From Lingula anatina (lineage: Eukaryota; Animalia; Brachiopoda): 64,000 nucleotides of DNA. Shown here piece by piece: positions 2,297-37,987 of this stretch. A model generated the notes under the pieces. The model saw only the letters and a program-made list of their open reading frames with translations. It made no database searches and had not been told where the DNA came from. The position numbers and the translations under genes were made by a program. Location: assembly GCA_051362555.1 (NCBI GenBank), contig CM120642.1, positions 11,098,001-11,162,000 of the forward strand, given 5' to 3'. Numbering within the stretch: position 1 is the stretch's first letter; each line of letters begins with the position of its first letter.

Positions 2297-3299
2297 TGCA
2301 GAATGGAAAAAATTCCTTGGCACTATAAGGTGAAAAGGAATACTGAACTGTACTGTACTATACTGGACTGATTTTGACAGGAGGTGTGTAGGTGGTTATT
2401 TTGCATGCAGAACAAGAGTCAATTGCAGTGGCTTTTGTGTGTAACAATAATAAAGAAAATGATTGAAACCAGTACATGTATATTTCATACATGTAGTTCA
2501 TATGTTTGATAACAGTGCCATATGGAACTTTTTGAAGTCAAACTTCAATTTCTTTGTGGAGAACTGATGTTATAAGAAACGGGAATACTGTACATGCATG
2601 TTCTACTGCAGTTTGAAAATTGAAATTACCAAAATTGCATTTAAATAACTTGCATACTGGTACTGTGTAATATAAAAGTACTATTTGAACATGTAAATAT
2701 GATCAGATTGTTGTCTTATTTTTTTACAGTATATATGTTCAAAAATACTTAGTGCATCCATATCAAACTGCATTTTGTATCAATAAATCATTTTTCTGTA
2801 TATTTGTTTTTCTTTTATACCACAACCATGAAACTTAGAAATGGGTATATTTATTTATTGGGGGGGGGGGGGGGGGGGGGAGAGAGAAGAGAGGGAGGGC
2901 TATCGTAACTGAACAGCTAAACTGAACTGGACATACCAGATTTATTAACTATATACCAGTCTGTAGTAAGAAAAGTTTCAGTCCAGTGTACTGTAATTTC
3001 GCATTGATGGCAGCATCGATGTTGTATTAGTACCCTGGCTGCCACTGACGTCATCAGCATATGATAGGACGCAAGTAGTGCCGACCGCCAGTGACTGTTT
3101 CGAGTGTGACTGTTTATGCCATCAACCTCGTCACTCAGAAGATTGCCTCTTATCAGCTCGTACAGGGAACATATTAGCTATGCCACGACTACCAAGCGCT
3201 GGCTGGCTTCGCATTAAATTTGGAGATGTCTGGCGCTCGCGATGGTTTGAACTTGAACCGCGTCAACTAAAATACTATAGGCGGCAGAGGCAAGTTGGG

Positions 3300-3343
<44 letters not shown>

Positions 3344-3552
3344 GCCGCAAGCCGAGAAAATGCTTGAGTTGGGGGGGGGGCGTGCCCCCCTGCAGATCTT
3401 CATATATTCTACACAACTAGACTGTATAAGTTCAATAGAGACAAGGACTGTAAAGCACATATGTGCTTTACATAGTGTATATGATTGCCAGAGTGCGTTC
3501 TTCTTGCGTTTCTGATAATGGCGGACGCACCCGCGCGGTACGGTACGTTGCT

Positions 3553-3770
3553 TAGAGTGCATTCTCAGAGATTAAGATCGATCCATCCGGATCGACCTAA
3601 CTCCCTGGGGGTTCACGCTAAATTGCAGTCAGCCGAGCGCGCACGACAGTTAATTACCCCCTTACAGCTTTTAGTAGGCGGGACAGACGCTTAAGCCGGC
3701 TAAGCTGACAGTAATCTAGTGAGAATCCCACAGGGATAGATCGATCTAAAATCATTTGGAATGGGGTCTA
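3553..3770. mobile_element. MITE in intron 1 of type A copies (second copy about 18297-18519)
   Basis: Imperfect TIRs TAGAGTGCATTCTCAGAGATTAAGATCGATC / GATCGATCTAAAATCATTTGGAATGGGGTCTA; present in copies 1 and 3 only. Confidence 0.55.
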
Positions 3771-4262
3771 ATAGACCAAGAAGTTATAGAGGCAACCATT
3801 CTACTTTATTCTACTATATTTCAAACTGGTGAGCCGTAGGGCTCAATGGTTTAATAAATTGAAATCGAATGCGCTTTAACAATTGTGTGAATATTTTGAG
3901 AAAATTCCAAGGAATGTGCCATTTGCCATATGTATAATATTTAAACCTGAATGTTATGATAAATACCTTGAGCACCTCTTACTGACACGAAACGAAACCG
4001 AGGGTCCGTGTAACAGAAATAAAAGCCCGACCTCCATATAGCATAATGGTTAGGTTTAGTCTGACCCAAGTGGATCAAAATCTAGGGCGAGGCTCACCAC
4101 TAAAATGAATAGGAAGCGGACTCTCTGTTATGGGGAACTCTGTCACGTTACACCGGCACATATCGTTTTGGTGACAGTGCATTTTATTAACTAATTTACA
4201 TATTTCTAATTATTTCAAAATTACAGAGGTCAAAATGAGAATGATGCACCCGAAGCCATTAA

Positions 4263-6720
4263 AGGGTTTGCTTCATGCCGTCAGAATGGCCTGAACGGAA
4301 CATATTCTTCAGAAAACATGCCCAACTAACGATATCTTTATCCAAATACACAAATTAAAAGCTCATTTTGTAAATTTTTGGCTTTAAAAAACGTCCTATT
4401 TGCTCGGCCTGGGAGTTAATGAGCTACGTGGTCACGTGGTCCAATGACGACAATCGAGCCACTGGAGAACAGAGCGTGCTTAGCTGTCAAACTGAGCTGC
4501 ATTGTCTACCTGTAAGATGACTTCTCTGGCTTCTGATAAAAGTTTATACTCATTCAAATCTCTTACCCGAGGGGTCTAAATCCTCGTGAAGCTGTGTAAA
4601 ACCATTTCCCGTCTAGTCATTTCTTTAACAAGCATTTCATTATGGTTATCCCAAGTTGTATAAAACACTGCATTTGAATGAGTTAAGGGAAATGTTAATT
4701 ATTGCATATGAGGTCCATGTTATTTGTGAAATTCAATTTATTTTATTAAACCGCTGACACTCCGTCTTGCATACTTTTATTAAACTGAGGTAAACAATGC
4801 CCGTTACCTTTACAAGTCCTATCTTAATCATCCATCTACCTGGAACTTCCTTTACCTCTTAATTAGAGGGTTAAATGGCATTCAATTTGTCTTGTTTGTA
4901 TCGAACGCACTCTCTATCTAAGCTTTACTCCAGTTATCTCAGGTAAAAATCTACCTGTGCGTTAGTTACAAAGCGCAGCTCCCGTAGACCTGGGGGTACT
5001 AGATAAAATCTGAACACCAGGTTTATCGAGGAGCTAGTGAAAGAAAGGAAGAATTTTTCCTGCACAACTTCATAGGAATGTTAACACGGACTTGATCCAG
5101 CTTAGACCTCCAAACTAATAGGGTGACATGGGCAATTTTCACAAACAAATCATAAAACTATATTTCAGTTAACCGCCTTTAAAATAAATATACCGTTCTG
5201 GGTAAATTAAAATAGTTATTAAATCGCAAGAATATTTTTGACTTAAATGATGATTTTATTATTAATGGAAATTAAGCTACTATATGAGGTACATTTGCTG
5301 TGATTACGCTGTCCTTCATGTTTTGCGTAAGTCTACATTTTGCTGTATGTGCTTGTAATCTTTTTAAATATGTGCGTACAATTTTTGCAGGTCTGGTAAC
5401 CCCCCTGTTATGTGATGAGAGTATTAATTTGGCAATTAGTTCCTTAGCTTATTTGAATAGAATTGCAGTGTAAAATTTTCAACAAGATGTTGGCGAAATA
5501 GCCCATTACTCTTTGTAGGTATTTCCCCCGTCAAAGTTTGTCTAAAATTATCTTTCAATCTTTACTCTTTCAAAGACAGTATAAAGTTACCTGACATATT
5601 TTCGTGTAAACTTAATGACAAGCCAAGTGTCTCCAGTTCATTCCGTACTCAATTTTACCCAAGCAAATTTTTTTCTTGAGTAGATCTTTATAGCACGTTG
5701 TTATAAGCTTACAAATTTGCAAAAAAAAATTGCGTACTGACGCAGAATTTGCGTTTCAAGTTATAAAATAATCAATATGTTAAATTCTTTAATATTTCAG
5801 ATGAAATAATCTTCAGAAACAAATCCTCAAAGCATAAACGAATTAGGATAACGAACCATTTTATTATAGCAGTTCCCATTTTTTCTTTAATATAACGCTC
5901 TTTTTCCTGTTTTTCCTCAACACGTTTTCTTCCACGGAAGCTTCAAGATACCCTGAGAGCAATTTCTTTTATTAATGTTCGCGACCGTGTTTGAACTTAA
6001 TTGTTTAAGTATTGATATTTAACGTCATTTACAAATACCAATAAAATAACCCCATGAAATAAATGAGATATATTGAAAAATATGAAAGCCCACCAAGACG
6101 AGTTTCATACCTGTTATTACCTGGCTTGGGAATTGCAGCGGTGCATAATTAACAGGTTTGTTGTAAACGAGCTTTTGGGCAACTACAATGCATTTAAAAT
6201 GCATCAGCAATCAGTAAGTTTGCCAACTGATGACAGTTAATCTGAAAGACTACCAGCTCTTGATATGATCTAAACCACCTGAGGTGACCATGATCTAGAG
6301 CATCGCAACTATTGTCACCGAAGTTAGTAAGTAAGTCACGGAAGACCGTCACAGACAAAGAAAGATTGTCAACGAGAGCTGCAATTTTGGTGAATCCCAC
6401 GGCAACACACCGAGGCATAACGAAAATTCCTCAACTCCGTTCAACACAACTTTCCTTAACTTCTCCGTCTGTATGCACCTGCAGCTCAGTTGAGTCTCAT
6501 AGACTTTTATCGTGATTGTCGTCACAGTACCACGTGACCCAGATCTGTTGCTTCATTTTTGCATATTGAGGTGAGGTTTACTAAAACGCTTTTTTTCTAC
6601 TAATAGATTGTTTTTATAATTTTTAAATGGCGGGGATCGATTAAAACATACCTCTAGTGTATAGATTGAGTGCTGTATCTTCAAAATTCGAGAAATGGAT
6701 TTTTACATGAACATTGTCCT
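4263..6720 (-). mobile_element. Non-autonomous Kolobok-like DNA transposon, 2458 bp
   Basis: TTAA TSD at 4259-4262 and 6721-6724; AGG...CCT termini with short imperfect TIRs; subterminal inverted blocks (GTCACGTGG..TGACGACAATC..AACTGAGCTGCA at about 4430-4501, inverse at about 6480-6538); decayed THAP-like start MPRCVAVG on the minus strand at 6418. Confidence 0.75.
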
Positions 6721-7448
6721 TTAAAGACATCACAACCGCCAAGGTGCAGGTGGCCAACGACCAAAATCCACGTAGATTTGAAGTAACTGCTGAAGGAATG
6801 ACATATCAACTGGAGGCGATTTCGGCAGAAGAGAGAGGACTGTGGGTGGAAGCCTTAAAACAGGCCATAGGTATATTATCAGTATAAATGGGGTTATATA
6901 GGCCTACCCGTAGCTGCAGTGCCACTGCAGAAAGATAAGTTAGTGTATCACTTCGTTTACTAGACGTACTGAACACAATTAATATGAGTACATGTACGAT
7001 TGGAATTTGAAAAGGATCTTTACAATAGTTAACGCTCATGCAGTGGGGACACATGATTTATTTCATACCCGACCCGTTTCGTCTGTCATCTGCCTCACCC
7101 TCCTCACGTCGAGCCATATTTTATAGAATCTTTTGTTTTAGAACTATCTTTCAGACGGAGGGTTACAAAGGGGTTCTTTGACTCACTCAGTATGCCTTGT
7201 ATGTGCTTTGATAAACATTTTGAAGATTCTGTGCTCCTTGTATGATTTTGCAATTGAACCAGTTTGGAGAAAATGGTTTTGATCCCTGCTATAAAAAAGA
7301 CGTGTGGAAGACTCAATAAAATTGTTCGGGGAAATGTCTGTGATCTTTGGCACTAAAATATTTTATCAATAGGGTTTAGAAAACAACGAACAGCTACAGC
7401 AAGACCCTTGTCTGCAACAAAACGTGGAAAAGAGTAGAAATATTGTCG

Positions 7449-7480
<32 letters not shown>

Positions 7481-7934: not shown

Positions 7935-8150
7935 TAATTATGATCTGGAAATGCTCTCAGTATAGCGTAAAAAACCAAACACCACATATCTGACAGCTGT
8001 GTACTTACAACTCTTCTCTGTGGTTCAGAATACTGATCATAACAGAAAAAAGATCTCAGGAAGCTATCTACCATTCACACCTCAAGCCTCAGAAAAATCA
8101 TAGAAATATATGGGCCAAGGACTATATCAAACGAAGATCTGTTAAAACAA
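7935..8150 (+). mobile_element. Decayed RTE-like LINE reverse-transcriptase C-terminal fragment (paralogous copy about 20680-20890)
   Basis: Across frameshifts it reads [12 protein letters not shown]...[33 protein letters not shown].(W/G)[10 protein letters not shown], matching the RTE pattern LLYGSEtW...LRkI..I.W...ISNeeL. Confidence 0.7.
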
Positions 8151-9998
8151 GATAACTAACGAACCATGAGCTTATTCAATGTAAAACTAAAAAGCACTCA
8201 AAGAGCCCAAACCTCTGAAAATATGGCTCAATTCTCAAATTTATGAATTAACTCAATTGTTCTTATTTATTGCTTGACTCATTGATTAGCCAAATTATTG
8301 TAAAATACATTTATTGATTATTAATTAATATTTTTTTTATTTCATTACAAATTTTAAATGATTCATGAATCTTTCTTTTCAGGTCCACGACGTAGTTCAG
8401 GAATCCCGATGATAGTCGGAGGTGTCATCAGCGCGGTAGGGGCTGTTGCTTTAGCCCCAGTCGCTCTAACAGTCGTGGGATTTACCAGCGGCGGGATAGC
8501 CGCCGGATCCATGGCAGCCTCAATGATGAGCAGTGCAGCGATTGCAAATGGCGGAGGTGTGGCGGCGGGCAGTCTCGTGGCGTTGCTTCAGTCGGCAGGT
8601 GTGGCTGGTCTTGGAACGGCAGCAACTGGCGCTGTTGCGACTGTCGGAGGAGCAGCTGGAGCCGCAGTCGTTGGAGTGGGACAAAAAATGTTTAGGTATT
8701 AAAACTCTTTGAGGCCACTATTCGAATATAATTGTCGTAAGATGTTAACAGATATGTTTGACTTTCAAGAAGAAAAACAACTATATCCAAATCAAGACAT
8801 TCACAGTTGTAGTGTACCCTCTGCCAGGGTCACAGATTGACTTTCACTTTATTTTCACAGATATTCCTCTGGCTAATTCATGACACAGTTCTTATTGCAC
8901 AGAACGGTGCATATAATAAGATAGAGAAATAATTATCTTTGAATATTTAATGGAAAATCAATAATGCCCCGGTAGAGGGTATCATTAGCCAACCTTTCCA
9001 AAGCAGTCATTCAAAACTAATTCACATAACATTTAAACAGTAACTATAATAATATAAAGGAATGGTAATTTACGAAAATGAATCAAATTTGGATTCCGCA
9101 ATTTTTCAATCGTTACTTATTGGTTTCTTCGGTTGTAAGGAGTTAAGCCAGTTTTGATTGTTTAAATGCTAATAAAAACGATTAAAATTGAACTGTTGCT
9201 TGTTTCACTAAGTTGAATTTTACTCGGCAATCTTATAGCCCATTTTTAACGTTGAAAAAAAACCTGTCCGTGTTAAAGAAGGTGCAGAAATCGTTTCTTC
9301 CTCCTTTCAAAAGAGTTCTAAAATAACTCATAAACAAAATTTAACAAAGATACCCTTACGGTGTCTTTTTCTGGATTGAAAGCCACTTTTTGAAGGTTAA
9401 GGGCTCTTACTTTGCGCAAAATCAACAGCATGACTTTAAATGAACAAAGAGGCCAAACAAAACCAAAGGCTTCTGTTTTGACACGCCAACAAGGGTCGGG
9501 CAGAAGCACAGCATTACATGGAGAACGTGCTATGCTGTCCCGCAACGGTGTGAACATTCCGTATGTTAACAGGTGCCATATGTAGGTTTGGTATCGTAGG
9601 TGGTAAGCTGTTGATTATGTTTACCATTGGTTCGTTGGTGGTCATTGCCTGTATATCGCCATCGGAATGTTCAGAACATCAAAGCGTCATAAAACAGTTT
9701 CGTTTTATTATAAAACCTAAAATGCAAGTCAAATAGATATAAGGCTATTCGCACATACGTGGCACACTAAAATATCGCGCCATTCACCCTAAATTTTAAT
9801 AAGTCTATCCAATTTCTAGGGCACTTTTTTTTGCTTGTTTTCCTGTCATCTTTGCAACTTTACAAGATCTGCAATCTTTGCATCGAGCTGTGAAGCCGAT
9901 AATTTTGTCCGTTTTTTTCCAATAAGAGAAGCAGTTCCTGAAATTTTAATGTCAAACAGTCTGATAGATGCTGTAGTGAACTTCAAAATTTTTGTCTG

Positions 9999-11074: not shown

Positions 11075-14000
11075 ATGCCACGGCTACTATGCACTGGCAG
11101 GCTTCGCATTAAAGATGGGAATGTCTGGCTTGAGCGATGGTTTGAACTTGAACCTTGTAAACTGAAATACTATAGACATCAGAGGTGAGTAGGCTCTTTC
11201 TCTCTCTTTCTCTCTTTTTGGTTGAAAGGTGAGAAAATGCTATTTTTCTCGCCTTTCAACCAAAAAGAGAGAAAGAGAGAGACTTTTCAGACTTGCCCTG
11301 CAGGGTGAAAGCCTGAAAACAGTTTGTCTAGCCGTGGTGTGTAAATATTTTGAGAAAATTCCAAGGTGAGTTCTATTTGCCATAAATATAGTATTTCAAC
11401 TTGTATCTTATGATGTGTGTCTTGCTGACACTTGAATCGCTCTGGCATATACTGTCAGCCCGGGAGCCACCGGCTCATTTGACGGTTAATTTGGAAAATA
11501 TTAGATTTGGCCTCGTTTTCAAAACGTGGAGTGGTAGCCCAAAGAAAATTTGGCGGGAGACGAAGGCATAGAGACAGGTAAGTTGTACATGTGTTTGTGC
11601 AATGAACAGTTGATTTAAATACTAATGAATTTGACAGGACAATACAGTATATGCTTAAGTTACATTTTATACACCGAAGAAGTGTTCGTGTATCGATTTC
11701 ACTGAGTATTCTCTAAAGTTACTGGCGTATAGCAAAATGGCCGCACACAAAACGTCATTGTAAGCATTGACTTTTGAACTGTGCCAAATGCAGCTTAAGG
11801 GTTTTTTTCTTTATCTGTTCCTGTTTTTTCATAGTTTGGCAATATTTTTTGAACATATAAAATTTTTAAGATGTGCGATGGCCTGTTATTTGTAGAATTT
11901 CAACATTTCCAACAAGCTGTATATTCACCGTGCCGGGTACCTATCATTTAGTTGATCGGGTGATGGCAGTGGCGTTCTGGTCTCATGTATGGAATGATTG
12001 TCACCGTATAAGTGAAATGTTTGAATCTTGGCTTTTCATGCAATTTCTTCGTGTTTTAATGTGAAAAAGATGAAGTGGATTGCAAAATGACATTGTCATC
12101 CAACCTGCATACACGTATACGTATGTACATATGGTGGTGTACCGGTACTTAATTGTTTGCAAAGCGGTGGGAAGGGGGGGGTGCATTGGTACCAGTAGTT
12201 GTGAAAGATTCAGTATTGTACACTAACCATAGGCATGTTTAAAAAGATATGAATCTTAAATTATGTCTTTAAACATGTTTTCTTTTTTGCTTGGGGCGGG
12301 GGGTTAAATATATATTGTGTTAATTTTTTAGAAAAAAAAAACATGTAAACACAAAATAAGTTTTATTGCATTGGTTGGGGGTTTTGAGGAGAAAAATGTC
12401 ATAAAAATGCAAGTTTAAAAAAGGTGAATAATATATGTATGTGTGTATGTACATTAAATGAAACATGCTCTTCAATGATGAGGGCATATGATAGTGATGT
12501 GGTGCTCTGAATTGCATGTGTTTTCTAATATTTTCATGCCTTGATTCAGATTGGGTTTTTAATTGATGATGGGTGTGCAACTTTGCCCAAAGTTCAGTTT
12601 CAAATGATTTTTATTTATAATTACTGTTATGAATTAAGTATAAATAGCGCAGTTTAAGGTAAAGATTGATTGTAAATATAGTGCTGTTTAAGATTGACTG
12701 TTACAGTTTACCTATTACAAAGATTGCAATAAATTATTATTAATTTCAGTGTGTATATGTGTGAGCAATTGATAAATGTAGTTAGAATTTTTTTAATGAC
12801 ATTCTATTGAAAACTCTATTATTTTTTCTAGGCTTGAATAGTATGAATGGGACCAGGATTATTCCTTTTGCTGTGCCTTGACCTGCAATTATCATAACAA
12901 AAGCACCCATCATTTCCAAATGCTGTGTGGCAATGAACACCCCTGGGATACTTCTAAGGGATGCAAAAATATATTTTTGAGCTGTGCTGTTGCTTATATT
13001 AATAGTTATTGGTTATCAGTATATAGAAATGCAGTTTGTGAAATCATTTTAGGTTTTAACCACATGAAGTTAGTTAAAAGTGTATGTGCAACTAAGTTAA
13101 CAATACATTGTTTTATTTTTACTGTGCAGGTTTTTTTATATATGTGTAGCTTATAGATAATATCTACTTATCAGAATACATGTAAAACAAGTTTATTCAA
13201 ATGCAAATATGGATTGGTACCTGGTATCAGTGAAAGAAAATTAATTTGACAACTTTGGGAAAATTTTTAAATGTTTCTCAAAAAATCTTCAATTAGGCCA
13301 TTTTCTTACAGAGTGGAGAACCTGGGATTCCATTTTTGACTAGTTTCTCCACTTATAAATTTACTTTACTTTTTCACTAATTTCTTCTATGTAAAATGTA
13401 AAATGTTTGTATCTTGTTATGTGCAGCATCACTTGTAATATACTGTTTTGTACGTAGTCCGGCTATCTACATATATTTCATGTTTACTTAATATATAATG
13501 AATGTCTTGTGTGTGTTATTGTGTGTGTGTGTTTGTGTGTGTGTCTACATATGTATTTTTGTTTGTCTTTTTGTGAATAAAAAAAAAAAAAAAAACTTTG
13601 GGAAAATTTATGAAATTATATTATTTGTAAAAATTGAACTGGTCCACTTTGTAAAGGGGAATTGTGTGTTAGATGGTTAAATATATATAAATGTGTACCA
13701 ATCAAATAAGGTAGCATTAAATTATCACCTACTGGTTAAATATTTCAGACTAGTTGAATTTTATGTAAAATTAAAAAAACAATGTGATTAAATGTAAATT
13801 GTCTTTCATTTGTTATTTTTCATATTTAATGAAAGGAATACCCTCATCAGTTGGCCTCATGTAATAAAAAGGTTTATTTACAATGAAAAAGAATGTTAAA
13901 ATCCATTTGTATTAGCACCGTGGTAAGTGCCAAGAAAAAAATTATTTTCATTGTCCCCAATACTCAGTTGCTCTATATAAGTAATACTGTGTGAAGAAGA

Positions 14001-16108
14001 AACTAAAACGAGACTGAAGCTCATGAGAAAGCACTAAGTCAAAGCGAGGCTTATATGCGGATATCGTAAGTGAGTGTTTTCAGGCTGACATGGCCGTGAA
14101 TTGATTTGTGCCATTCACAGCTTAAGGCAAAGTTACATTGACAGAAAGCTGAATAAATTTGCTACAAATTACTGGTAATTAAAAGTTGTGCGGAGGCCTC
14201 TATAGATACAAAGATCACAGTTAAAGATGAACTTCCGTTATAGCTTTCGTAAATTTTCGATTTCAAACTATTTTTTTAACATTAAATAGGCTCTAGATCA
14301 ACTCGTGGTGCATCTCACATTATTCGAAATTTATTTCTCAATATGTCAATGTACGTAATGTGTCCCTGAATACGTTCATAGCCGAGATATTGCATCGTTT
14401 CTGACACCCTATAAATTTCTAAAATTTTAGCCGATTCAAAAGTGTAAGACTTCCGGATTGTTTAAAAGCCACCTAGCGGCAGACCGGTGGCTCCCGGGCT
14501 ATGGGTGACAGTGCATTTATTAATCACCTCTACTAGTAATTACTTTAAAAATACAGAGGGCAAAATGAGAATGATGCACCCGAAGACATAATAGAAATCA
14601 CGAATGCCAGGGTCAAGGGGACAGAAGACCAAAATCTACAGAGATTTGAAGTAACTGCTGGAGGAGTGACATATGAACTGGAGGCGGATTCGGCAGAAGA
14701 GAGAGGGCTCTGGGTGGAAGCCTTACAACAGGCCATAGGTATGTTCTCATTTTAAAAGGGATTATATACATGTAGCACCAAAACCCAATATACCAGTAGA
14801 GGTCAAAGGCATGCTCTCAAAAATATTCAATGCACAGATTACAAACTACGATTATTTTAGGGTCCCACATGAAGAAGTTTGTATCAAAGTTTCACTCTCC
14901 TAGAACCACGAATTATTAAAAAAAAAAAAAACGCATCGTCTTACCCAAAAAAGGAACATACGTTACTGTCACAATTGCAAAACGTCTAGCTGTGGTAACT
15001 TTTTACTCACTTCGAAAATTCAGTCATCACTGGTTTTGTTCTTTAATTTATCTCCTAAAAGTGTAACGTCCTCACCTCAACATTATAATAATCTTCTTTA
15101 TAGAGCAGTTAATTAGCTTTATATTTACTGAGTGGCTTTGTTTAGCTTTGTTTGGTAAAGAGGCAGGTCACTTTCGAAATTCGGCATGATCGGTTTACAT
15201 GAACGGTAATTTCTTCTTTTTTTCCGAAATTTCTATGACGTTAGCCCCAGAACCGCCAGACTGTATTTTTGTTTTACTTTAAATTTACTGAGTGGCTTTG
15301 TTAGGTAAAGAGGCAAGTTGCTTTCAAAAATCGCCATGATGATTAAAATTGCTTTTTAACTATTTTAGTGACATTCGCCCCATAACTTCAATACCGCATT
15401 TTTGTTTTACTTTACTGAGTGGCTTTGTTTAGTACAAAAGCAGGTTGCTTTCAAAATCAGCATGACCGGTTTACATTTACGGTAATTATTCTGGTTTCTG
15501 TTAAGTGTATATTTGTCAGCTTTGCTGTCTAGTGAACCACATTTGTGTCCGCAAAAGCTTCATTTTAACCTATGAGCTGATTCAATGTAAAGCTAACAAG
15601 CACTCAGGCTTTACCTGCAACATGACGGCTAAATTCTAAAATTTATGAATTAACTCAATTCTTATTATTTATTGCTTATCTGATTAATTAGCTAAATTGT
15701 TTTTATTATAATTGACCTCTTATTTGATTATTCATAAATTAATGTTTTATTCATTACAAATTTTAAATGATTCATGAATCTTTCTTCTCAGGTCCACGAC
15801 GTAGTTCAAGTACCCCCCTGATAGTCGGAGGTATCATCGGCGCGGTAGGAGCTGTTCCTTTAGCCCCAGTCGCTCTAACAGTCGTGGGATTTACCAGCGG
15901 CGTATTCGTGGACGCCCCAATGATGAACAGTGCAGCGATTGCAAATGGCGGAGGCGTGGCGGCGGGCAGTCTCGTGGCGTTGCTTCAGTCGGCAGGTGCA
16001 GCTGGACTTGGGACGGCAGCAACCGCAGCTGTTGCGACTGTCGGAGGAGCAGCTGGAGCCGCAGTCGCAGGAGTGGGACAAAAAATCACACAGTTGTTTA
16101 GGAATTAA
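11075..16108 (+). CDS. PH-domain-IFI27/ISG12 fusion protein, copy 2 (type B), 202 aa
   Basis: Exons 11075-11184 ([36 protein letters not shown]), 14557-14738 ([19 protein letters not shown]...[31 protein letters not shown]) and 15792-16108 (ISG12 domain). GT-AG sites, phases 2 and 1, open throughout. Confidence 0.85.
11199..11282. repeat. Near-perfect inverted repeat (about 39-bp arms)
   Basis: TCTCTCTCTTTCTCTCTTTTTGGTTGAAAGGTGAGAAAA-TGCTAT-TTTTCTCGCCTTTCAACCAAAAAGAGAGAAAGAGAGAGA; one mismatch. Confidence 0.9.
11457..14500. mobile_element. About 3.0-kb TIR DNA transposon derivative in intron 1 of copy 2 (Academ-like termini, tentative)
   Basis: Perfect 17-bp TIR AGCCCGGGAGCCACCGG / CCGGTGGCTCCCGGGCT; the empty site is visible in copy 4 (GGCATATACCGTATGGGTGACAG, about 34825-34847). 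No intact ORF; TSD ambiguous. Confidence 0.75.
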
Positions 16109-26134: not shown

Positions 26135-29100
26135 ATGCCACGGCCACTATGCACTGGCAAGCTTCGCATTAAAGATGGGAATATCTGGCTTGAGCAATGG
26201 TTTGAACTTGAACCTTGTAAACTGAAATGCTATGGACATCAGAGGTGAGTAGGCTCTCTCTCTCTCTCTCTCTCTCTTTGGTCGAAAGGCGAGAAAATGC
26301 TGCTGGGGGTGGGTATTCTTGTGGCAGTCTCTTCAAAACATTCTACACAACTAGACCGGAAGTTCGTTTGGGACACGGACAGTAAAGCGTGTAGTGCCAA
26401 CGGGTATGTTTATGTCTCGATCTGAAAAGGCAGATCACATGACTGGACTGATAGCGAGACTGACTGACATATAGTTTTTAGCCGGACTTCTACATGAAAA
26501 GACGTGCTATCCAAGAAATTAAGAAAGTGACAATTTGGTTCAAGCTAAAGAGCTTTAAAGGTAAGAAACATACTATTACCTTAATTAGAATCCAAAGGGA
26601 ATTCTACATTGGCGACGAGGAAGCACGAACTCACGTAGCTTAAGTAAAATTCAAAAAAGAAAAAATTGTGAGGACACGAGGTAAGTGGTGAAAGCGCCCG
26701 TCACTCGTGTATTAGAATTCACTCGGTCAGCGATATAACAATAATATACTGTCAGTAAAAGTGCTGTTAGTATTATTGTGTATTGTGTTAGTGTTATCTA
26801 GGTTGTTTTGTCTTTTTTGAATCTTATTTTTGGGTATTCGTTGTAATTTCGTTCAAAAGTGAACACTATTCTCAAAATGGCGGGTCACGTGGATAGATTC
26901 TACATCAATTATGCCACTGACCCTCAACTTCAAGACATACCCGGTGTCACATCAGGGCAGGCCCGAATGTTATATTTGTTAAGAGCTCAAAGGGGTAACT
27001 TAACAAAAGGTTTGGTAGAGGAATGGTTGGATGTTCAGTTGTCTCCTTTAGCCCTTAGTGTGATAGACTTTTCCCCTAACCCTCATTTATCGGGGTCAGC
27101 AGATTCTAGGTCATCTTGGATACCAAATTTAGGTCAGAATTGGTTATGGCAATCTGCTAAAAAGTTGTTTAGTTGGGGTAAAAGGAAACCGACTGTTTTA
27201 AATACAACATATCCCTTTCAGTCTGTGGCTAAAAATTATGAGACTAGTGAAAGCACTTTTCTCAAAACTCCACCCCAGAGGGGACTTTTTCCATCCAACC
27301 CTGAGGTTCAAAGGAACTCAACTAACCCTCAATTACAAAATGTTGCTGTATACCCTGAGGTTCAAAGAAATCCGACTGGTTCAAATTTTCAAAATGTTGC
27401 TGTCTACCCTGAGGTTCATAGAAATCTTAATGGTCCACATTTTCAAAATGTTGCTGTCTACCCTGAGGTTCATAGAAATCTGAATGGTCCACATTTTCAG
27501 AATGTTACATCCAATGTCAACCCTGAGGTTCAAAGGAACTCAAGTATACCACATTTGCAAAGTTTTTCAACCAGTGTCAACCCTGAGGTTCAAAGGAACC
27601 AGACTAGTCCACATTTTCAAAATTTTTCAGCCAGTGACCACCCTGAGATTCAAAGGAATCTAATTAACCCTCATTTTCAAAATTTCTCAGCCAACCCTGA
27701 GGTTCAAAGGAACCAAAATAACCCCATTTTTGTCAATTCAAATTTTGGCACTAATATTGCAAATACACCAGCTTTTCCCATTAACGCAATGGGAGGGGAG
27801 GATTATTATCATTCACAAGAATCCCCCATGCAAATAGATCAACCTACAATTCCAAACATTTCTGCATCTAGACGTATGGTATGCCCCCCTAAAAATCTAA
27901 CTTTCAATGGAAAGACAAGCTGGGCAGCCTTTAAACTAGTATTTTTAAGGCACGCAGAAAGAGAGGGTTGGGATTCAAATATGTGCCTGGATGGACTTTG
28001 TTTATGCCTCAGTGGAAAAGCACAAGAGTGTTGTGTAAATGTGACCAAACGTGAAGGCATATTGACCTACAAGGGCCTCTTAGAAGAATTGGAGATGTGC
28101 TATGGAGAAACGGACACACCAGTGACTGTGCGTTCGCGACTCCATAATTCACTACAGAGTGAAACTGAATCAGTGGATGAATGGGGTGTGCGCGTTCTAA
28201 GGCTCGCGTCACAAGCCTACCCCAGCTTGCCTAAATCATTTGTGGACTCAGAGGCTGTTAACAGATTCTGCGCTGGAATGTTGGATACAGAAGCTGGACA
28301 AGCCATTTACATGCAACGTCCTCAAACCTTACATGAAGCTATGCAATTAGCTAAAATGCATAGAGAACTTAAGGTCACCATGGAGACAAAGAAGGGGCGC
28401 ACTATGACCAAAAGGGTTAATAGTGTGACACAACAGCCTGATATGAAAGATGAAAAGTCATCCAGTAATATCTCTGAGATGGTAACTTTTAAAGAAGAAC
28501 TAGGAAATGTGCAAAAGGCACTTAAAGAGATAGCACAACAATTGAATCAAAGACCATGCAATGACCGGTGGGGGTGGCGTAATTCAAAGGAATTATAACC
28601 CCAATCCATCTTATGCAGGTAGAGGACGTGGCAGAGGTAGAGGGTATGTAAATTGTTTTTCCTGCGGAGCTGGAGGTCATTTTGCCAGAGAATGTCCATC
28701 TAATCCACAGGGAAATGGCAGAGGGTCGGGGAAATAGGCCAACCCTCGACCCATGAATCAACAGGCCCAGACGTCAAGGAAAAGCCCTGCTTTAAGCCTC
28801 TTAAGAAGATGAATTCAGCACCCAGTCATTCCTCTCCATTAAAAGTAATGGAAGGAAATGAAATGTTAATGATGCAGAGAAAGAAAGAAGTCAAAAGTAA
28901 AGAGGGAAAACCAGCACCCAGTCATTCCTCTCCATTAAAAGTAATGGAAGGAGATGAGAATTTAATAATGCAGAAAAACAGAGGAGTCAAAAGTGACAAA
29001 TCTGTAGTAGTGTTATGTAATATTGGTTTAACATCCTGCTTAACACTCAATGTACAAGTGGGAGATAAGAAGATTAAAGCTGTAGTGGATACCGCAGCCG

Positions 29101-32100
29101 ATGTAACTATACTGTCCGATCGAGTATATAAAAGTATGAAGAATCCTCCAAGAAAATTGAATGATGTGAAAATGTTATGCGCAGGACGTAACATGACAAT
29201 GGAGGGATTCACTGCAGGGCCATTGAAATTGAAAATAGGAAAAACATGGTACCAAGAACAGGTGTATGTGGCACCCATAGAACAGGATATGTTACTTGGA
29301 TTTGATCTTCTAACCCAAAGGGGTCAAGCTATAATAGACACCCATCATAGAACTCTGCATTACGATGGCATGACATTAACCATGGATAGTGACCCCAAGG
29401 GGACATCTCCACAGGTGGCGAGAGTAAAAGTACTCAAACGTCAAGTAATACCTCCAAACTCAATCGTAAAAGTACGATGTGTAATGGATGTGGACTTAAT
29501 TGACTATGTCATCGAGCCAACAGAAGGGGTGAAAGGTAAATTTCTGATACCTAGGGTAATTCGTAATGCAGGGACAGAGCCCATCATGGTACTAATTAAC
29601 CCTAGTTACCGTCATCGCCTATTAAAGAAAGGTGCTGAAATAGGAAGGGCTTTTATTTATGATCAAATAATGACGCCTGGGAAAGAAGAAGAGCAGGTAA
29701 TGTTACCATCATGTAATACTTGCTATGATATACCAGAGCATAAAGATGCAACTAAACTAGCAAAGGCTACTTTAGAAAAACATGCAACTTCTAGGAAGGG
29801 AAATACAGTTACCATAAGGGTGAATAAAATCACCACAGATGAAAATGAGATCAATGATAAGATGTATGTACCACCCCACTTACAGCAGGTGTTTAAAGAA
29901 TCTTGCACTGAGCTAAAAGTAGGTCAGTGTGAGCAGTTGGCACAAGTACTGAGAGAATACCAGGATGTTTTCGCAAAGGATGAATTCGACCTAGGCAATT
30001 TTACAGCGATAGAACATGTGATAGAGACTAGTGGTGCGAAACCTATAAAACAACGAATGAGACGGACACCAATTTGTTTTGCAGAAGAAGAAGGGGCCCA
30101 CTTGCATAAGATGTTACAAGCTGGTGTGATTAAAGAATCTACATCAGATTGGGCATCACCTCCAGTGTTAATTCGAAAGAAAGACGGATCAGTTAGATGG
30201 TGTATTGATTATCGTGCACTTAATGAAGTGACGGTAAAGGACGTGTTTCCATTACCACTGGTGGATGACTGCCTTGATACATTATCAGGTAATGTCTATT
30301 TTTCCAAGTTAGATGCTAACTCAGCTTATTGGCAGGTACCAATAAGGGAAGAAGACAGGAAAAAGACAGCCTTTATAACCAAGTATGGCCTTTATGAACA
30401 TGTGAGGATGGCTTTTGGTTTATGTGGAGCACCTGCGACTTATGCCAGGATTATGAATCTGGTTTTTAGAGGAATGACATGGGAAACTGTGCTAGCTTTC
30501 CTGGATGATATAGTAGTTCTAGGAAAGTCTTTTAATGATCATTTAAAGAACTTAAGAGAAGCCCTCACCAGATTTAGAATGTATGGATTGAAATTAAAGC
30601 CTAAAAAATGTGCATTTTTGCAAAAGAAAATTGAATTTCTAGGTCGCACAGTAACAGGAGATACTCTTGCTGTATCAGATCATGATGTAAAAATTGTAAA
30701 GGACTGGCCAACTCCACAAACTTCAAAGGAAGTGGAAAGATTTATGGGCTAGCTAACTATCACAGGGCTTTTATTAAAGATTTCAGCAAAATTGCTACAC
30801 CACTGTATGCAGTGACTGGAAAGAAGAACTTCCAATGGGAAGAAAAACAGGAAGTAGCCTTTAATCGCTTAAAAGAAGCATTAACTACTCCCCCTGTTCT
30901 CGCAGTGCCAACGGGAACTGACGAGTTTATATTAGATACTGATGCCAGTGAATATGCCATAGGAGCTGAATTAATTCAGGTTCAGAATGGACAGGAGAAG
31001 GTGATTGCATATGGCAGTTATGGTCTCACTAAAGAGCAGAGACGTTACTGCACAACACGTAAAGAACTACTGGCAGTTGTAAGATTCACTCGACAGTTCA
31101 GACATTACTTACTGGGAAAGCCGTTTAAAGTAAGGACTGACCATTCAAGCTTAAGATGGTTGATGAGATTTCGGGAGCCGCAGGGACAGTTAGCGCGATG
31201 GATGGAGGAGTTAGCGCAATACAATATGGTGTTATCCCATAGAGCGGGGCGTAAACATGGGAATGCTGATGCTTTGTCTAGAGTTAGCCATACCGGGCAG
31301 TGTGTCAACATAAGCACCAAAGGGCGGCTGGTTGACCTACCATGTGGTGGGTGTGATTATTGTAAGCGGGCTCAGAAAAACTGGGCCAGGTTTGAAGAAG
31401 ATGTGGATGATGTAGTGCCACTGGCAACTCGGGGAGTTAATAGCCAAAGGGCAACAGACATCAAGGGTGAAGATTTCTCATCAGACCAGATATGCGACAA
31501 TGGCAAGACAGTCTATACAGTAACGGTAGACTCAGAAAGGGAGTATACTGAACCAGAAGTGCTGGGAGAAAGAGTAGATGGTATTCCAGAGGAAAGTATA
31601 GATGATATGCCAGAATTTAAAGTTATGCAGTGCATAATTGACAACATTCCGTGGGATCCAGGAGAATTAATTCAGGTGAATATGGTAAAGACCAGTCACC
31701 AGGCACCAGGGGGAGCTACTCAGAAAGCTGATGATAGCTCTTCACACTTGACCAGTTGGGGTTATTCTGTTGATGAAGTAAAACAGGCACAGTCAGCAGA
31801 CAGTGAGTTGAAGGTGATTATAGATTATAAAGTGGATGCTACTGAACCAGATCAGTCCACCCTATTTAGAGGCAGTCAGGCGTTGAAAGCATACTGGCTG
31901 AACAGAGACCTGTTTACCATCATTAATGACATCTTGTATTGGTGTGATCCAATTAGTGAGGATAAAAGGTTAGTGTTGCCCTCCAGTTGGCGTGAGGAGG
32001 CCATGAGGATGCATCATTGTTTACCATCTGCAGGGCATCAAGGAGCAAAAAGGACTAAAGAGCGCCTTAAAGAAAGATTTTACTGGTACGGCATGGGCCG

Positions 32101-35100
32101 TGAAATTGATAACTTTGTCATGGGATGCCCGAGATGTAATCAGAATAAAAAGTCATCAAGACAGGGAAAAGTCCCTCTTAGAGAATTCCAGGCAGGTGCA
32201 CCCATGGAGAGAGTACACTTAGATTTCCTTGGCCCTTTGCCAAAGACTGCAAAAGGAAATGAGTATATTTTAATGATGGTGGATCAATTTACTAAGTGGA
32301 TTGAATGCATTGCACTTCCGTCTCAATCGGCTGAAGAAACTGCAAAGGCAGCTATAGATCAATTTTTCTCTCGTTTTGGAGCTCCTTTTGAAATTTTTAC
32401 AGATCAAGGGAGAAATTTTGAATCAAAATTATTTTTAGAAGTGTGCCGGGTTTTAGGAATCTATAAAGCACGAACAACACCATACCGTCCCTCAAGTAAC
32501 GGTCAAGTAGAACGCTACAATCGGACATTGATGGATGCAGTGAGGTGTTTTACAGAAAAGTCACAGAATACCTGGGATGTGAATTTGCAACAAATAGCTG
32601 GAGCATTAAGGGCTTCAGTGAACAGGATGACCGGATTCACAGCAAACAGACTAATGTTAGGTCGTGAGGTGAATGCACCCGCTGACTTAATGTTTCCTCA
32701 AAGGAGGATTAATAATGAAGATCCTGAAAATTATGCTGCACAGTTAGCTGAAGATATGAAGGAAGCACATGAGATTGCTCGCAGAAAGCTGCAAGCAGCC
32801 TCTAAACGTATGAAAAGAGATTATGATCTCAGGATACTGGAGAGAGCATATGAGGTTGGTGATGCAGTGTATATATTGGACACGGCAGATACTAAAGGCA
32901 AATGTAGAAAATTATGTCCACCGTGGAAAGGACCTGGAGTGATTGTAGCCAAATTAAGTTCTAACTTATTCCGAGTGAAGGTTAGAAATGCAGTGTTTGT
33001 GGCCAATCATGACCGACTTAAGCCGTGTAAAGACACGGAATTACCACAGTGGATTGGACATTGGAGGAAAAATCCAGAGAGTCATGCGACCCGAAGGGGT
33101 GATGACAGAGTCTACTGTAACTGCCGACAGCCATGGCACGGTAGATTTATGATACAGTGTGACTTCTGTGGTGAATGGTACCATGGCTCCTGTGTGAATG
33201 TGACTGCTACTGATGCCTTGGAGATTAATAAATATAAATGTCCGGATTGTTTACGCCGAGCAAAAGTGCTGGTGTAAAAGAATGTACATTATAGTAAAAG
33301 TACTGATTTCAAGGGGCAAGTAGTAGAGGGAGGAGATCCTAACAAAGGCTAGTATATATGTAGATCGGTTGGCACCAGAAATGTAATTTGTTTTTCAGGC
33401 CAGACTTGGTATAACCTGGTTAGATGGTCGTGGCAGGGGTGTAAGTGACATTCCTGACTGCGAGTACTATGTACACAGCCCTGAAAGTGAAGGGAGGTGT
33501 GTAGTAAGGTGGGGGTTCAATCTTTTTGGATAAAGAGGGGAAGAGTGTAGTGCCAACGGGTATGTTTATGTCTCGATCTGAAAAGGCAGATCACATGACT
33601 GGACTGATAGCGAGACTGACTGACATATAGTTTTTAGCCGGACTTCTACATGAAAAGACGTGCTATCCAAGAAATTAAGAAAGTGACAATTTGGTTCAAG
33701 CTAAAGAGCTTTAAAGGTAAGAAACATACTATTACCTTAATTAGAATCCAAAGGGAATTCTACAAATATGTGCATTATGATTGCCACAGTGAGTAGGCCC
33801 CTACGTCCTTATTCTTTTCGTATGTGACGGAAGACCAGAATATTCACAGGGGGTGGAAAAGAGCGGCATGAACAAGTACTTATATAATTTGGTCGTCTCT
33901 TGTGGCGCGCATGAACAGCGTTCGATCCGCCACACCTGGGTCTTTGACAGCAGATTGCCCGTTTGCAAGCTGTCTTTGGGACATTGCAAAAGTTATTCTG
34001 TTTTTTCACCTTTTTTCAGCATATATGCAATACCGAAGACATGCTTTAAGGAAAACTATAACGAAGACTCTCTGTACTGTTAACAATCTTTATTCTTCGT
34101 TTATTTGTAACAGTAACTGTTCTCCATTAGGTAGGCTAGCACGCCATGTATCCCTGCCACCAAGACAGTTTGGTCGACATTAACATATGAGATAAAGCAC
34201 TCACTGTTTGACCAATAGGTCATTGACAAGTGACTAAATAGTTTAGGGCTTTTGTCATGCCATGCTTTGCAAAGGTCAGATTTTTCATTTCTTTCATTTT
34301 TTTTAAATTAAATTTTCAAATCAGTATATCACCCAGAGGAGGATAATAATCATACACAGGGCGAATATGCAGTCCTAGATTTATAAGGTGGTCTTAAAAA
34401 TATAGAATAATTGTATTTTATGTTTGGAGAAACCACTTAAAGTTTTCTAGGAGCCCCCTCCCCCTCCTCCTCCTTAAAAATTAAAAAATATTTGGGAGTT
34501 TTCAACTTGTAAGAACAAGCAACGTTTAAAATGAATTTTTGAGCTGGGCTATTCAGTTTCTGTTACACACACATATGCACACACACACACACACACACAC
34601 ACACTTTTTTTCATTTTGCCCAGCCCCACTCCCCCAAATTTGGAGTGGGACAAGTAAATTGTCAGACTTACTAGCCCTGCAGGGCAAGAGCCTGAAAACA
34701 GTTTGTCTAGCCTTGTGGTGTGTGAATATTTTGAGAAAATTCCAAGATGAGTTCCATTTGCCACAGATATAGTATTTCAACTTGCATCCTATGATGTGTG
34801 CCTTGCTGACACTTGAATCGTTCTGGCATATACCGTATGGGTGACAGTGCATTTGTTAATCACCTCACAAATTTCTACTAGTAATTACTTTAAAATTACA
34901 GAGGGCAAAATGAGAATGATGCACCTGAAGCCATAATAGACATCACGAATGCCAGGGTCCAGGGGACAGAAGACCAAAATCTACATAGTTTTGAAGTAAC
35001 TGCTGGAGGAGTGACATATGAACTGGACGCGGATTCAGCAGAAGAGAGAAAGATGTGGATGGAAGCCTTAGAACAGGCCAAAGGTATGTTCTCATTTTAA

Positions 35101-36606
35101 ATGCGATATATACATGTAGCACCCAAACCCAATATACCAGTAGAGGTCACAGGCATGCTCTCAAAAATATTCAATGCACAGATTACAAACTATGATTATT
35201 TTAGAGTCCCACATGAAGAAGTTTGTATTAAAGTTTCATTCTCCTAGAACCACGAATTATTAAAAAAAAAAAAAAAACGCATCGTCTTACCCAAAAAACT
35301 GTCACAATTGCAAAACGTCTAGCTGTGGTAACTTTTTACTCACTTCGAAAATTCAGTCATCACTGGTTTTGTTCTTTAATTTATCTCCTAAAAGTAAAAC
35401 GTCGTCAACATTATAATAATCTTCTGTATAGAGCAGTTAATTTTTGAGCGACTTAAGTTTGCTTGTCACTGTAAAGCCTAACGGAGGGGAAATACGTTCT
35501 ACTGACAGTAAAATAATCATTTAAAAATAATATCCATTTGTGGACCAAATATTATATCAGAAATGTCGAACTATATTGGAATCACAATATTTTTTTCAGT
35601 CATATATATTATTTACCATAACTGAATCACTACAAAATATATCAGAACGCGATATATAAATCAAAATCATATGCCCCGTCACATAAGTTACCATTGAGGC
35701 TCTTTACATAATGTATTACTATAGACGAGGAAAAAACTTTAATTTAAAGATGTAGATGCAAAATTGAGACAGTCGTGGATTTCGTTCTAGACACATGTAT
35801 GTTTTTTAAAACATATTAAAATAAACTAAATACAACTTCAAATTTATTCAATTTAATTTTATGATATAATTTTCATGTGAAATGCACCTCTTTATTGGGT
35901 TTCTGTGGTAGCTGCAGTTCCACTGCAGATATATAAGTTATGTGTTTCACTTCGTGTTCTAGATGTAATGAACACAATCAACGTTTGTACTTGTATAAAA
36001 GTAATATCATCTTTACTATAGTTAGCACTTACAGGTATGCGGGGGGGGGGGATAAATTATTTCATATCCCGTCTGCTCACGCCAAGCCATTTCAGTCATA
36101 TAATCTGCGGTTAAGAACATCATTTTAAACAGTCTTTCTATATGGAGGGTTACATAGGGGTTCTTCGGCTCAGTCAGTATGCGGCTATGCCTTGTTGAAT
36201 TTGACAAACACTACATGTATGAAGATTCTGTGCTCCTTGTCTGATACTGCAAATGATCAAGTTATGAGATAATGGTTACGTATCCTGCTATAAAGCAGAT
36301 AACAGATCAGCCAGGAGTGCAAAAATCAATAAAACAGTCCAAGAAATTAGTCTTTGATCTTAGGTACTAACTTCATCAATAAGTTACTACTTCATCAATA
36401 AGGTGAGGAAAAAATTTGGTGAAAAAGATAAGGGTTGTGATCTAAGGCATCAGTGAGATAACAGTTGTGATAGGTTACCGTGTCAACTTCAGACTGTGTA
36501 ATTTTTTGACAATGCAGATTTTCATCTAGCCTAGATTGAAATTTCATTCTGGCCTAGGTGGATTTCAAATCTGCCAAGATTTCAGTTTGGCCTCTGACAC
36601 ACACAT

Positions 36607-36672
<66 letters not shown>

Positions 36673-37987
36673 CAATACATCCAGACCTACTGTAATACTT
36701 CCGTGTGAAAAGCGCCCCCTGTGATTGTCGTGTTTTTTGTTGTGTTGTTACTTTCGTGTTGGGGTCAAACTTCGGAACTTTCAAGTCGAAATCCTTTTCC
36801 AGCTGGAATTTTAATAATTTATATCAACCTTGCAGTGAAACAGTTTGTATATTTTGATCGGTGTTTGTCCGTATTGTCGCCTTTTCTGTCGCCGTCGACG
36901 TCGCTGCCCGACACATGACGTTCGCCCCATAACTGCCAAACCGTATTTTTCATTAGCTAAATATATTAACTGAGTAGCTTTGTTTAGCTTTGTTTGGTAA
37001 ATAGACAGCTCGCTTTCGAAATTTGGCATAATCGGTTTACATGAACGATAATTTTTTTTCCAAAATTTCTACATTATTACATTAGCCCCAGAACTGCCAA
37101 ACTGTATTTTTGTTTTACTTTAAATTTACTGAGTGTCTTTGTTTGGTAAATAGGCAGGTTGCTTTCAAACATCGCCATGATGATCGGTTTAAAATTACTG
37201 TGATTATTTCGCTTTTTAACTGTTTAAGTGACATTCGCCCCATAACTTCAATACCGCATTTTCGTTTTACTTTACTGTGGCTGAGTAGCTTTGTTAAGTA
37301 AAAATGCAGGTTGCTTTCAAAATCAGCATGACCGGTTTACATTAACGGTAATTATTCTTGTTTGTGTTAAGTGTATATTTGTCAGCTTTGCTGTCTAGTG
37401 AACCACATTTGTGTCCGCAAAAACTTCATTTTAACCTATGAGCTGATCCAATGTAAAGCTAACAAGCACTCAGACAGGCTTTACCTGCAACATGACGGCT
37501 CAATTCTAAAATTTATGAATTAACTCAGTTCTTCTTATTTATTGCTTATCTGATTAATAAGCTAAATTATTTTTATTTTAACTGACCTCTTATTTGATTA
37601 TTAATAAATTAATGTTTTATTCATTACACATTTTAAATGATTCATGAATCTTTCTTTTCAGGTCCACGACGTAGTTCAGGAATTCCGATAGTCGGAGGTG
37701 TCATCGGCGCGGTAGGGGCTGTTGCTTTAGCCCCTGTCGCTCTAACAGTCGTGGGATTTACCAGCGGCGGGATAGCCGCCGGATCCATAGCCGCCTCAAT
37801 GATGAGCAGTACAGCGATTGCAAATGGCGGAGGTGTGGCGGCGGGCAGTCTCGTGGCGTTGCTTCAGTCGGCAGGTGCAGCTGGACTTGGGACGGCAGCA
37901 ACCGGAGCTGTTGCGACTGTCGGAGGAGCAGCTGGAGCCGCAGTCGCAGGAGTGGGACAAAAAATCACACAGTTGTTTAGGAATTAA
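26135..37987 (+). CDS. PH-domain-IFI27/ISG12 fusion protein, copy 4 (type B), 205 aa; Gypsy element in intron 1
   Basis: Exons 26135-26244 ([36 protein letters not shown]), 34902-35083 and 37662-37987. GT-AG sites, frame open. Confidence 0.8.
26390..26608 (+). repeat. 5' LTR (219 bp)
   Basis: TGTAGTGCC...ATTCTACA; identical by eye to 33546-33764. Confidence 0.95.
26610..26621 (+). promoter_or_regulatory. Primer-binding site, tRNA-Ser(GCU) type
   Basis: TGGCGACGAGGA one base after the 5' LTR; complementary to the ...TCCTCGTCGCCA 3' end of animal tRNA-Ser(GCU). Confidence 0.8.
26877..28737 (+). CDS. gag: Gag (N-terminal HhH-like motif, tandem peptide repeats, capsid, RG-rich region and CCHC knuckle), with a 1-nt frameshift near 28555-28560
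   Basis: ATG at 26877; capsid-like [11 protein letters not shown]. The +1 frame from about 28561 reads MTGGGG...[33 protein letters not shown] to TAG. Confidence 0.85.
27295..27720 (+). repeat. Coding tandem repeat in gag, about 8 units of 54-60 bp
   Basis: Recurrent ACCCTGAGGTTCA encoding (N/Y)PEVQRNxxxPHFQN. Confidence 0.9.
28710..33277 (+). CDS. pol: Pol (aspartic protease, RT, RNase H, integrase, C-terminal PHD finger), split by a 1-nt deletion at about 30750
   Basis: Motifs [58 protein letters not shown] and WKGP. FMG-TAG at 30750 resumes as [11 protein letters not shown] in the adjacent frame. Confidence 0.92.
33528..33545 (+). promoter_or_regulatory. Polypurine tract
   Basis: GGATAAAGAGGGGAAGAG directly before the 3' LTR. 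Confidence 0.85.
33546..33764 (+). repeat. 3' LTR (219 bp)
   Basis: Direct repeat of 26390-26608. Confidence 0.95.
36609..36671. repeat. (TA)n microsatellite
   Basis: Directly visible. Confidence 0.95.

Follow-up and report, generated by a model that had tools for sequence, protein, structure and literature searches.

Tandem genes joining a predicted PH domain to an ISG12 domain in the brachiopod Lingula anatina

Background

Human IFI6, IFI27, and IFI27L1 (the ISG12 or FAM14 family) carry an ISG12 domain and hydrophobic Gly/Ala-rich helices, both of which recur in the fusion proteins described here. These are encoded by a tandem array in a 64,000-nucleotide stretch of the Lingula anatina genome (assembly GCA_051362555.1, contig CM120642.1, positions 11,098,001 to 11,162,000; hereafter, the window), in which four gene copies place a predicted pleckstrin homology (PH) domain in front of the ISG12 domain. 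The PH-ISG12 fusion is a real, expressed, lineage-restricted two-domain variant of the known ISG12 family.

IFI6 is a protein of 130 residues in which an N-terminal signal peptide is followed by two transmembrane regions, as described in the available excerpt of PMC13705193. According to PMC8228428, it blocks flavivirus replication organelles at the endoplasmic reticulum (ER), where phosphatidylinositol 4-phosphate can recruit PH proteins. IFI27 can destabilize mitochondria or bring an E3 ligase to its target among viral proteins (bioRxiv 10.1101/693333), and a shrimp IFI6-16 is virus-induced and antiviral or protective (PMC9144789). The reported locations of ISG12, IFI6, and IFI27 conflict, being either mitochondria or the ER. 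The Lingula protein differs from human IFI6 in that a PH domain of 97 residues stands in the place of the signal peptide.

Array Layout and Gene Anatomy

The window is intron-rich DNA with 38% G+C. The array consists of four copies in tandem, all on the + strand and each with three exons. A preliminary description of this DNA, made from its letters, had proposed such an array, with a 110-nt phase-2 first exon and an ISG12-encoding third exon, and both are found in all four copies. It had also proposed that a 182-nt phase-1 second exon is spliced in frame throughout; this exon is intact in copies 2–4, but in copy 1 it is interrupted by an insertion. After splicing, copies 2, 3, and 4 have open frames of 202, 201, and 205 residues, and copies 2 and 4 have an in-frame stop just 5′ of the ATG. 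The first exons fall into two types that are about 82% alike: type B, with a GC donor, is found in copies 1 and 3, and type A, with a GT donor, in copies 2 and 4. The GC donors had been overlooked in the preliminary description. The features of the array are as follows.

3180..3289, + strand: copy 1 exon 1, 110 nt, type B, GC donor; PH strands 1–3, KXn(K/R)XR present; PH profile positions 5–36, E 0.096
4227..4258, + strand: copy 1 exon 2, 5′ piece of 32 nt
4259..6720, no strand assigned: insertion of 2,462 nt inside copy 1 exon 2; TTAA duplication, AGG..CCT ends
6721..6870, + strand: copy 1 exon 2, 3′ piece of 150 nt; C-terminal half of PH, profile positions 56–104, E 0.005
8383..8702, + strand: copy 1 exon 3, ISG12/Ifi-6-16 domain and stop; E 5e-26
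11075..11184, + strand: copy 2 exon 1, type A, GT donor; basic motif absent
14557..14738, + strand: copy 2 exon 2; PH E 3e-5
15792..16108, + strand: copy 2 exon 3, ISG12 domain; 12 nt deleted in frame, core altered; 64.6 bits
17935..18044, + strand: copy 3 exon 1, type B, GC donor; basic motif present; PH E 0.036
19962..20143, + strand: copy 3 exon 2; PH E 2.5e-6
21124..21437, + strand: copy 3 exon 3, ISG12 domain and stop; E 1.5e-26
26135..26244, + strand: copy 4 exon 1, type A, GT donor; basic motif absent
26385..33764, + strand: long terminal repeat (LTR) retrotransposon in copy 4 intron 1, Ty3/gypsy-type; outside the gene proper
34902..35083, + strand: copy 4 exon 2; PH 33.6 bits, E 6e-8
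37662..37987, + strand: copy 4 exon 3, ISG12 domain and stop; E 1.5e-26

The PH Domain

The PH-fold pattern read earlier from the letters is borne out by the PH profile (PF00169, curated cut-off 25.1 bits). Exon 2 alone matches PH positions 40–104 in copies 2–4 with 24.9, 28.4, and 33.6 bits (E 3e-5 to 6e-8), while exon 1 alone gives a weak match to positions 5–36 in copies 1 and 3 and no PH profile match in copies 2 and 4. The four RefSeq counterparts of the fusion all pass the cut-off, with 36.3–42.8 bits. The exon order is collinear with the profiles such that exons 1 and 2 make up PH and exon 3 makes up Ifi-6-16. The conserved PH tryptophan is present in all copies, and several typical PH residues are lost from exon 1 of copy 4.

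An AlphaFold model (P0122; 38-row alignment, with PH covered by only 5 rows) predicts a PH fold for the Lingula fusion, with seven strands (residues 7–14, 17–26, 29–33, 47–50, 55–58, 66–71, and 74–79) followed by a helix (83–97), at a predicted local distance difference test score (pLDDT) of 84–94 over residues 11–100. When this fold is searched against the PDB, all listed top matches are PH domains or PH-containing proteins, with template modeling scores by target of up to 0.80. Structure prediction, which had been put forward as a check on the PH assignment, is thus in agreement with it.

Classical PH domains (CERT, ORP11, DAPP1, and the PLEKHA family) have the same fold as the Lingula domain, with a root-mean-square deviation of about 2–4 Å. 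However, their identity to it is only 16–30% and several classes score nearly equally; therefore, no ligand class can be assigned. No clear affinity to the OSBP/FAPP/CERT class is found, with ORP11 only at E 0.002 and eighth of 11. The ESM Atlas yields no feature match and its structure matches are generic PH proteins, while the three matches at E ≤ 0.001 in a viral fold library are all of low identity and uninformative. A basic motif, KXn(K/R)XR, lies in the loop between strands 1 and 2; it is present in the type-B copies 1 and 3, is absent from the type-A copies 2 and 4, and is a poor predictor of binding.

The ISG12 Domain

The exon-3 peptides of all four copies match the Ifi-6-16 profile (PF06140; 84 positions, curated cut-off 29.1 bits) with 64.6–92.5 bits. 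The profile checks suggested earlier thus come out positive, as the cut-off of PF06140 is passed by all four exon-3 peptides and all four RefSeq proteins, and that of PF00169 by all four RefSeq proteins. Homology extends to the solved structure of IFI27L1 (PDB 2LOQ; E 2.3e-16). The first hydrophobic stretch spans approximately residues 103–128 and begins just C-terminal to two arginines. The protein does not have the small stand-alone form with a short N-terminal leader: the 97-residue PH precedes ISG12, and the exons are found joined in reads.

Transcription and Splicing

Expression was followed in seven of nine public raw-read runs of the same species, which consist of short reads from other individuals. 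Two mappings were made. The first covers 2400–22300 at 94% likeness with runs X1, X4, X7, and X5, for which the best 15 of 20 joints are listed; the second covers 17990–37989 at 89% likeness with runs X1, X2, X6, and X8, and has a further 27 joint rows beyond those listed. Counts below follow these orders of runs.

Exon 2 is joined to exon 3 in copy 1 (6870^8383, GT..AG; 95, 19, 0, and 36 reads, three of four runs), in copy 3 (20143^21124; 114, 89, 14, and 52 reads, four of four runs), and in copy 4 (35083^37662; 4, 1, 9, and 0 reads). Additional reads (145, 133, 2, and 0) join a copy-4-type exon 2 to an exon 3 that maps on copy 3. Exon 1 is joined to exon 2 by 5 and 7 reads in X4 and 5 reads in X5 in the first mapping, in frame and from an allele 6 nt longer, and by 15 reads in X6 at copy 4 in the second, again from an allele 6 nt longer; further exon 1-to-2 joins in the second mapping (17, 15, and 4 reads) have a type-B exon end. 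Both kinds of join, as anticipated, are therefore found in frame in public reads. The joins predicted for copy 2 (11184^14557 and 14738^15792) fared less evenly: they have GT..AG ends, but neither exact join is among the best 15 of 20 joints of the first mapping. Given short reads from other animals and copies that are 82–95% alike, joins between copies may be mis-assignments.

In run X1, copy 1 exon 2 is covered to a depth of 178 (position 6838) and exon 3 to a depth of 152 (8602), and the intron separating them has no coverage. The two depths are similar; therefore, exon 3 is not in excess over exon 2. The open reading frame that starts with MIHESFF had been assigned to the acceptor region. 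In accord with this, the bin holding its ATG in copy 1 (7712–8375) has a depth of 0 in four of four runs, and the next bin has 107.5, 14.8, 0.8, and 46.4. The intron ahead of copy 1 exon 3, which contains this ATG, likewise shows a depth of 0 in each of the four runs. In stranded runs, exon reads lie on the gene strand.

RefSeq models also place different first exons on one body. Isoform X1 of LOC106166212 has a type-B exon 1 on copy 3 exons 2–3, while isoform X2 has exactly the type-A exon 1 peptide of copy 2 on the same exons.

Three side observations concern the transcripts. At 11175 and 26233, reads of X4, X5, and X6 reveal a 6-nt in-frame insertion in exon 1, carried either by an allele or by an additional paralogue; copy number or alleles differ between animals. 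Intron 1 of copies 1 and 3 (3590–3750 and 18330–18490) holds a short, very abundant transcribed repeat with hundreds of loose-ended reads on both strands. RNA 5′ ends accumulate at two places, 3127 in X5 and 3166–3167 in X7; the second lies immediately after an acceptor-like AG, and a non-coding upstream exon is possible for the type-B copies.

Transposon Insertions and Decay within the Array

The insertion in copy 1 cuts exon 2 after 32 nt. It starts TTAA-AGG, ends with CCT before a second TTAA, and has 26-nt subterminal inverted repeats that are 88% alike. Judged by these ends, the 2,462-nt element is a DNA transposon that duplicates TTAA, which we take to be Kolobok-like. Reads of three of the four runs skip it exactly, restoring the 182-nt exon (218, 12, 0, and 56 reads in X1, X4, X7, and X5). 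Removal by splicing was rejected, as none of the seven possible cuts has GT-AG, GC-AG, or AT-AC ends. The skip fits no normal intron at any cut; therefore, the RNA-donor animals likely carry an insertion-free allele, and RNA evidence makes it likely that the insertion is polymorphic and missing from these animals. Because the element interrupts exon 2, the copy 1 allele of the window is unable to give the fusion by normal splicing, and the insertion likely knocks out copy 1 in this haplotype.

Two further changes had been overlooked in the preliminary description. Exon 3 of copy 2 is shortened in frame by a deletion of 12 nt and the core of its ISG12 domain is changed; its Ifi-6-16 score is 64.6 bits versus 91–93 in the other copies. 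At two diagnostic sites, 15955 and 16026, all 86 of 86 and 152 of 152 reads of run X1 carry the letters of the other copies rather than those of copy 2, and no read support for copy 2's own exon 3 was found in that run at these sites. Copy 2 is likely decaying, to judge from its exon 3. The other overlooked change is the LTR retrotransposon of about 7.4 kb in intron 1 of copy 4, whose 224-nt LTRs are 99.6% alike. The element is recent, its integrase reading frame ends in a PHD finger, and its read depth is low.

Evolution of the Array

Between copies 1 and 4, the ratio of replacement to silent substitution rates (dN/dS) is 0.23 for the ISG12 exon (p 0.007) and 0.73 for the PH part. On the basis of the transposon hits and the one decaying copy, the array is proposed to evolve by birth and death.

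Searches for relatives or a donor of the PH part matched 2 of 17 candidates among proteins of 110–352 residues, both of them Lingula clusters, and 0 of 62 among proteins of 353–2000 residues, which is weak evidence where long proteins are concerned. A wider search gave as PH-only matches three long multi-PH proteins at 27–32% identity. The earlier view of a lineage-specific, amplified fusion is upheld by the tandem array and by a PH region that matched only two Lingula clusters in the proteins searched.

Database Counterparts

Four RefSeq models of L. anatina carry PH and Ifi-6-16: XP_013400146.1 and XP_013400147.1 (LOC106166212, isoforms X1 and X2), and XP_013400149.1 and XP_013400150.1 (LOC106166215). 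They represent the same genes as the window array or close alleles. XP_013400149.1 has 0, 1, and 3 differences per exon from copy 4, and isoform X2 has 0, 0, and 2 differences from copy-2 exon 1 followed by copy-3 exons 2–3. XP_013400150.1 has no close match to any window copy and may, by this comparison, be a fifth copy. Among the RefSeq matches, neither copy 1 nor the body proper to copy 2 is represented by a model.

The models are automatic and are named “uncharacterized” or “IFI27-like 2B”. The novelty of the architecture, which the preliminary description had left unverified, is thus partial: the architecture is already in RefSeq, unnamed or as IFI27-like, but no paper describing it was found. 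The literature searched holds no published description of PH-ISG12, although the Lingula immune-system literature and the FAM14 family literature may mention it; the accessible portions of PMC8917759 and PMC4892480 mention only mollusc IFI27.

ISG12 Fusions in Other Animals

ISG12 had been regarded as usually standalone. Added partner domains are not unique to Lingula: others, including a separate PH fusion (P0028), occur among long ISG12 proteins. Another Pfam family is carried by 25 of the 120 listed long matches (best 120 of 162), with PH in 3, vault in 6, lysozyme/SLT in 7, RING in 6, and three single cases. Among 46 longer ISG12 representatives scanned, RING occurs in 8, ankyrin in 1, and PH in none. 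The partners in P0028, P0033, P0017, P0034, P0162, P0099, and P0178, which come from different animals, are OSBP-class PH, lysozyme g, vault repeats, RING (N- or C-terminal), SUMO-like, and ankyrin. RING-ISG12 in decapods and ISG12-RING in oysters, each known from several records, resemble the Lingula fusion in combining ISG12 with an unrelated folded domain and differ from it in partner and lineage; vault-repeat-ISG12 in scombrid fish and lysozyme-g-ISG12 in salmonids, also with several records each, likewise have an unrelated folded domain added and differ in partner and lineage.

P0028 is a protein of 220 residues with an OSBP/FAPP1/CERT-class PH followed by ISG12, in the same domain order as the Lingula fusion and of similar size. 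It is the only second PH-ISG12 lineage among the best 150 of 1,390 matches. In contrast to the Lingula domain, the PH of P0028 has its closest matches in FAPP1 and CERT (E 1e-13). The ISG12 part of this protein is grouped with the lysozyme-g-ISG12 proteins of salmonids (99/95), which is the only grouping used from a tree of 84 columns and 54 chosen rows with 32 of 50 branches unresolved and an unconverged bootstrap. Because the PH of P0028 is FAPP1/CERT-like and its ISG12 groups with the salmonid lysozyme-g fusions, the PH-ISG12 fusion likely arose twice, with P0028 probably independent. P0028 is a single unverified sequence on one 1.25-kb contig and could be a chimera. The literature searched holds no description of a repeated, independent ISG12 fusion pattern, and this wider pattern may matter more than the Lingula locus alone.

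Proposed Function and Alternatives

The favored reading, to which a probability of about 0.55 is assigned, is that the PH head is likely cytosolic and likely aims the ISG12 helices at a membrane or partner, likely in innate defense or cell-death control. The PH domain would take the place of the usual short N-terminal leader, which in IFI6 is a signal peptide. Anchoring would be provided by the hydrophobic stretch at approximately residues 103–128, behind its two arginines, and PH would face the cytosol and select the membrane or partner for the ISG12 helices. Since exon 1 encodes the strand 1–2 loop, the two exon-1 types may correspond to two binding surfaces; KXn(K/R)XR is retained in type B and has been lost from type A. 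The automatic RefSeq models suggest that first-exon choice gives these two putative surfaces.

Several observations weigh against this reading. In a set of 67 human PH domains, KXn(K/R)XR failed to distinguish those that bind from those that do not (PMC8282632). The basic motif is absent from two of the four copies, and the PH part is acidic in copies 2–4, with net charges of −5, −5, and −7. A hydropathy threshold of 1.6 is passed only by the first hydrophobic stretch, and the ISG12 half of the AlphaFold model consists of four helices of low confidence (pLDDT 41–70). No consensus for an interferon-stimulated response element (ISRE/IRF), a gamma-activated sequence (GAS), or NF-κB is found within 400 nt upstream of any of the four start codons. 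The dN/dS of PH ranges from 0.59 to 2.17 in six pairs, none different from 1, which fits relaxed constraint or diversifying selection. The assignment of short reads from other individuals to single copies is uncertain.

A different role for the PH head, considered unlikely, is that of an integrated decoy that mimics a host PH bound by a pathogen, such that binding brings or triggers the ISG12 effector. PH diverges faster than ISG12 (dN of 0.21 versus 0.025 between copies 1 and 4), and nine replacement and no silent changes are found within the exon-1 types; in addition, ISG12 has been fused repeatedly to unrelated host domains, and ISG12 of the salmonid type is joined to either lysozyme g or an OSBP-class PH, all of which would suit a bait. 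However, no dN/dS is significantly above 1 in any of the six pairs (highest 2.17, p 0.26), and protein searches found no host PH donor to be mimicked. We also know of no brachiopod pathogen ligand, which counts against a decoy. The same rates could be read as drift if an ISG12 exon was placed behind the promoter and initial exons of a PH gene; the PH exons would then be passengers, contributing little. In keeping with this, the dN/dS of PH is near 0.6–0.75 in most pairs, exon 1 of copy 4 has lost typical PH residues and has no Pfam match alone, and a transposon sits in the PH exon of copy 1 in at least one haplotype. Apart from that insertion, though, no stop or frameshift is found in the PH exons of any copy despite a dS of up to 0.3, the PH scores exceed the cut-off with a confidently predicted fold, and an independent PH fusion exists elsewhere (P0028), so that passengers are the least probable of the explanations considered.

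It is also improbable, and a little more so than the decoy, that ISG12 merely anchors PH in a small, non-immune membrane tether or adaptor. Proteins with PH plus a transmembrane segment are a known class (PMC9692390), and a non-immune role would accord with transcripts in seven public runs of unstated treatment and with the missing interferon-type promoter consensus. Against it, all 84 positions of the ISG12 profile are retained, with scores of about 90 bits, far beyond the needs of an anchor. Immune loci typically show tandem amplification, allelic diversity, and turnover, which likewise speaks against a simple tether.

A broader and rather doubtful reading is that ISG12 serves as an exchangeable membrane-effector cassette, which animal lineages have equipped time and again with domains captured from the host (PH on two occasions, RING, vault, and lysozyme) as targeting or bait heads. 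In Lingula, first exons would swap the PH pocket on the same body, by paralogy and alternative first-exon splicing, with the variants aimed at different membranes or pathogen proteins.

As a natural, folded, and removable head, the PH domain shows that the ISG12 module tolerates an N-terminal domain on what is predicted to be the cytosolic side. The Lingula fusion offers a test of whether location decides ISG12 function. The scope is one non-model lineage, for which models are already public.

Other Features of the Window

Two neighboring features lie downstream of the array.

42120-42419, + strand: astacin protease exon
44383-44892, − strand: last exon of a 5′-nucleotidase gene

Further downstream, 48867-64000 holds two tandem gene copies with FG-GAP repeats and a long single exon (stretches of 661 and 676 residues, 94% alike). 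Both copies have an HEXXH-like motif in a region without a Pfam match, and the motif makes it possible that they encode an unusual metalloprotease.

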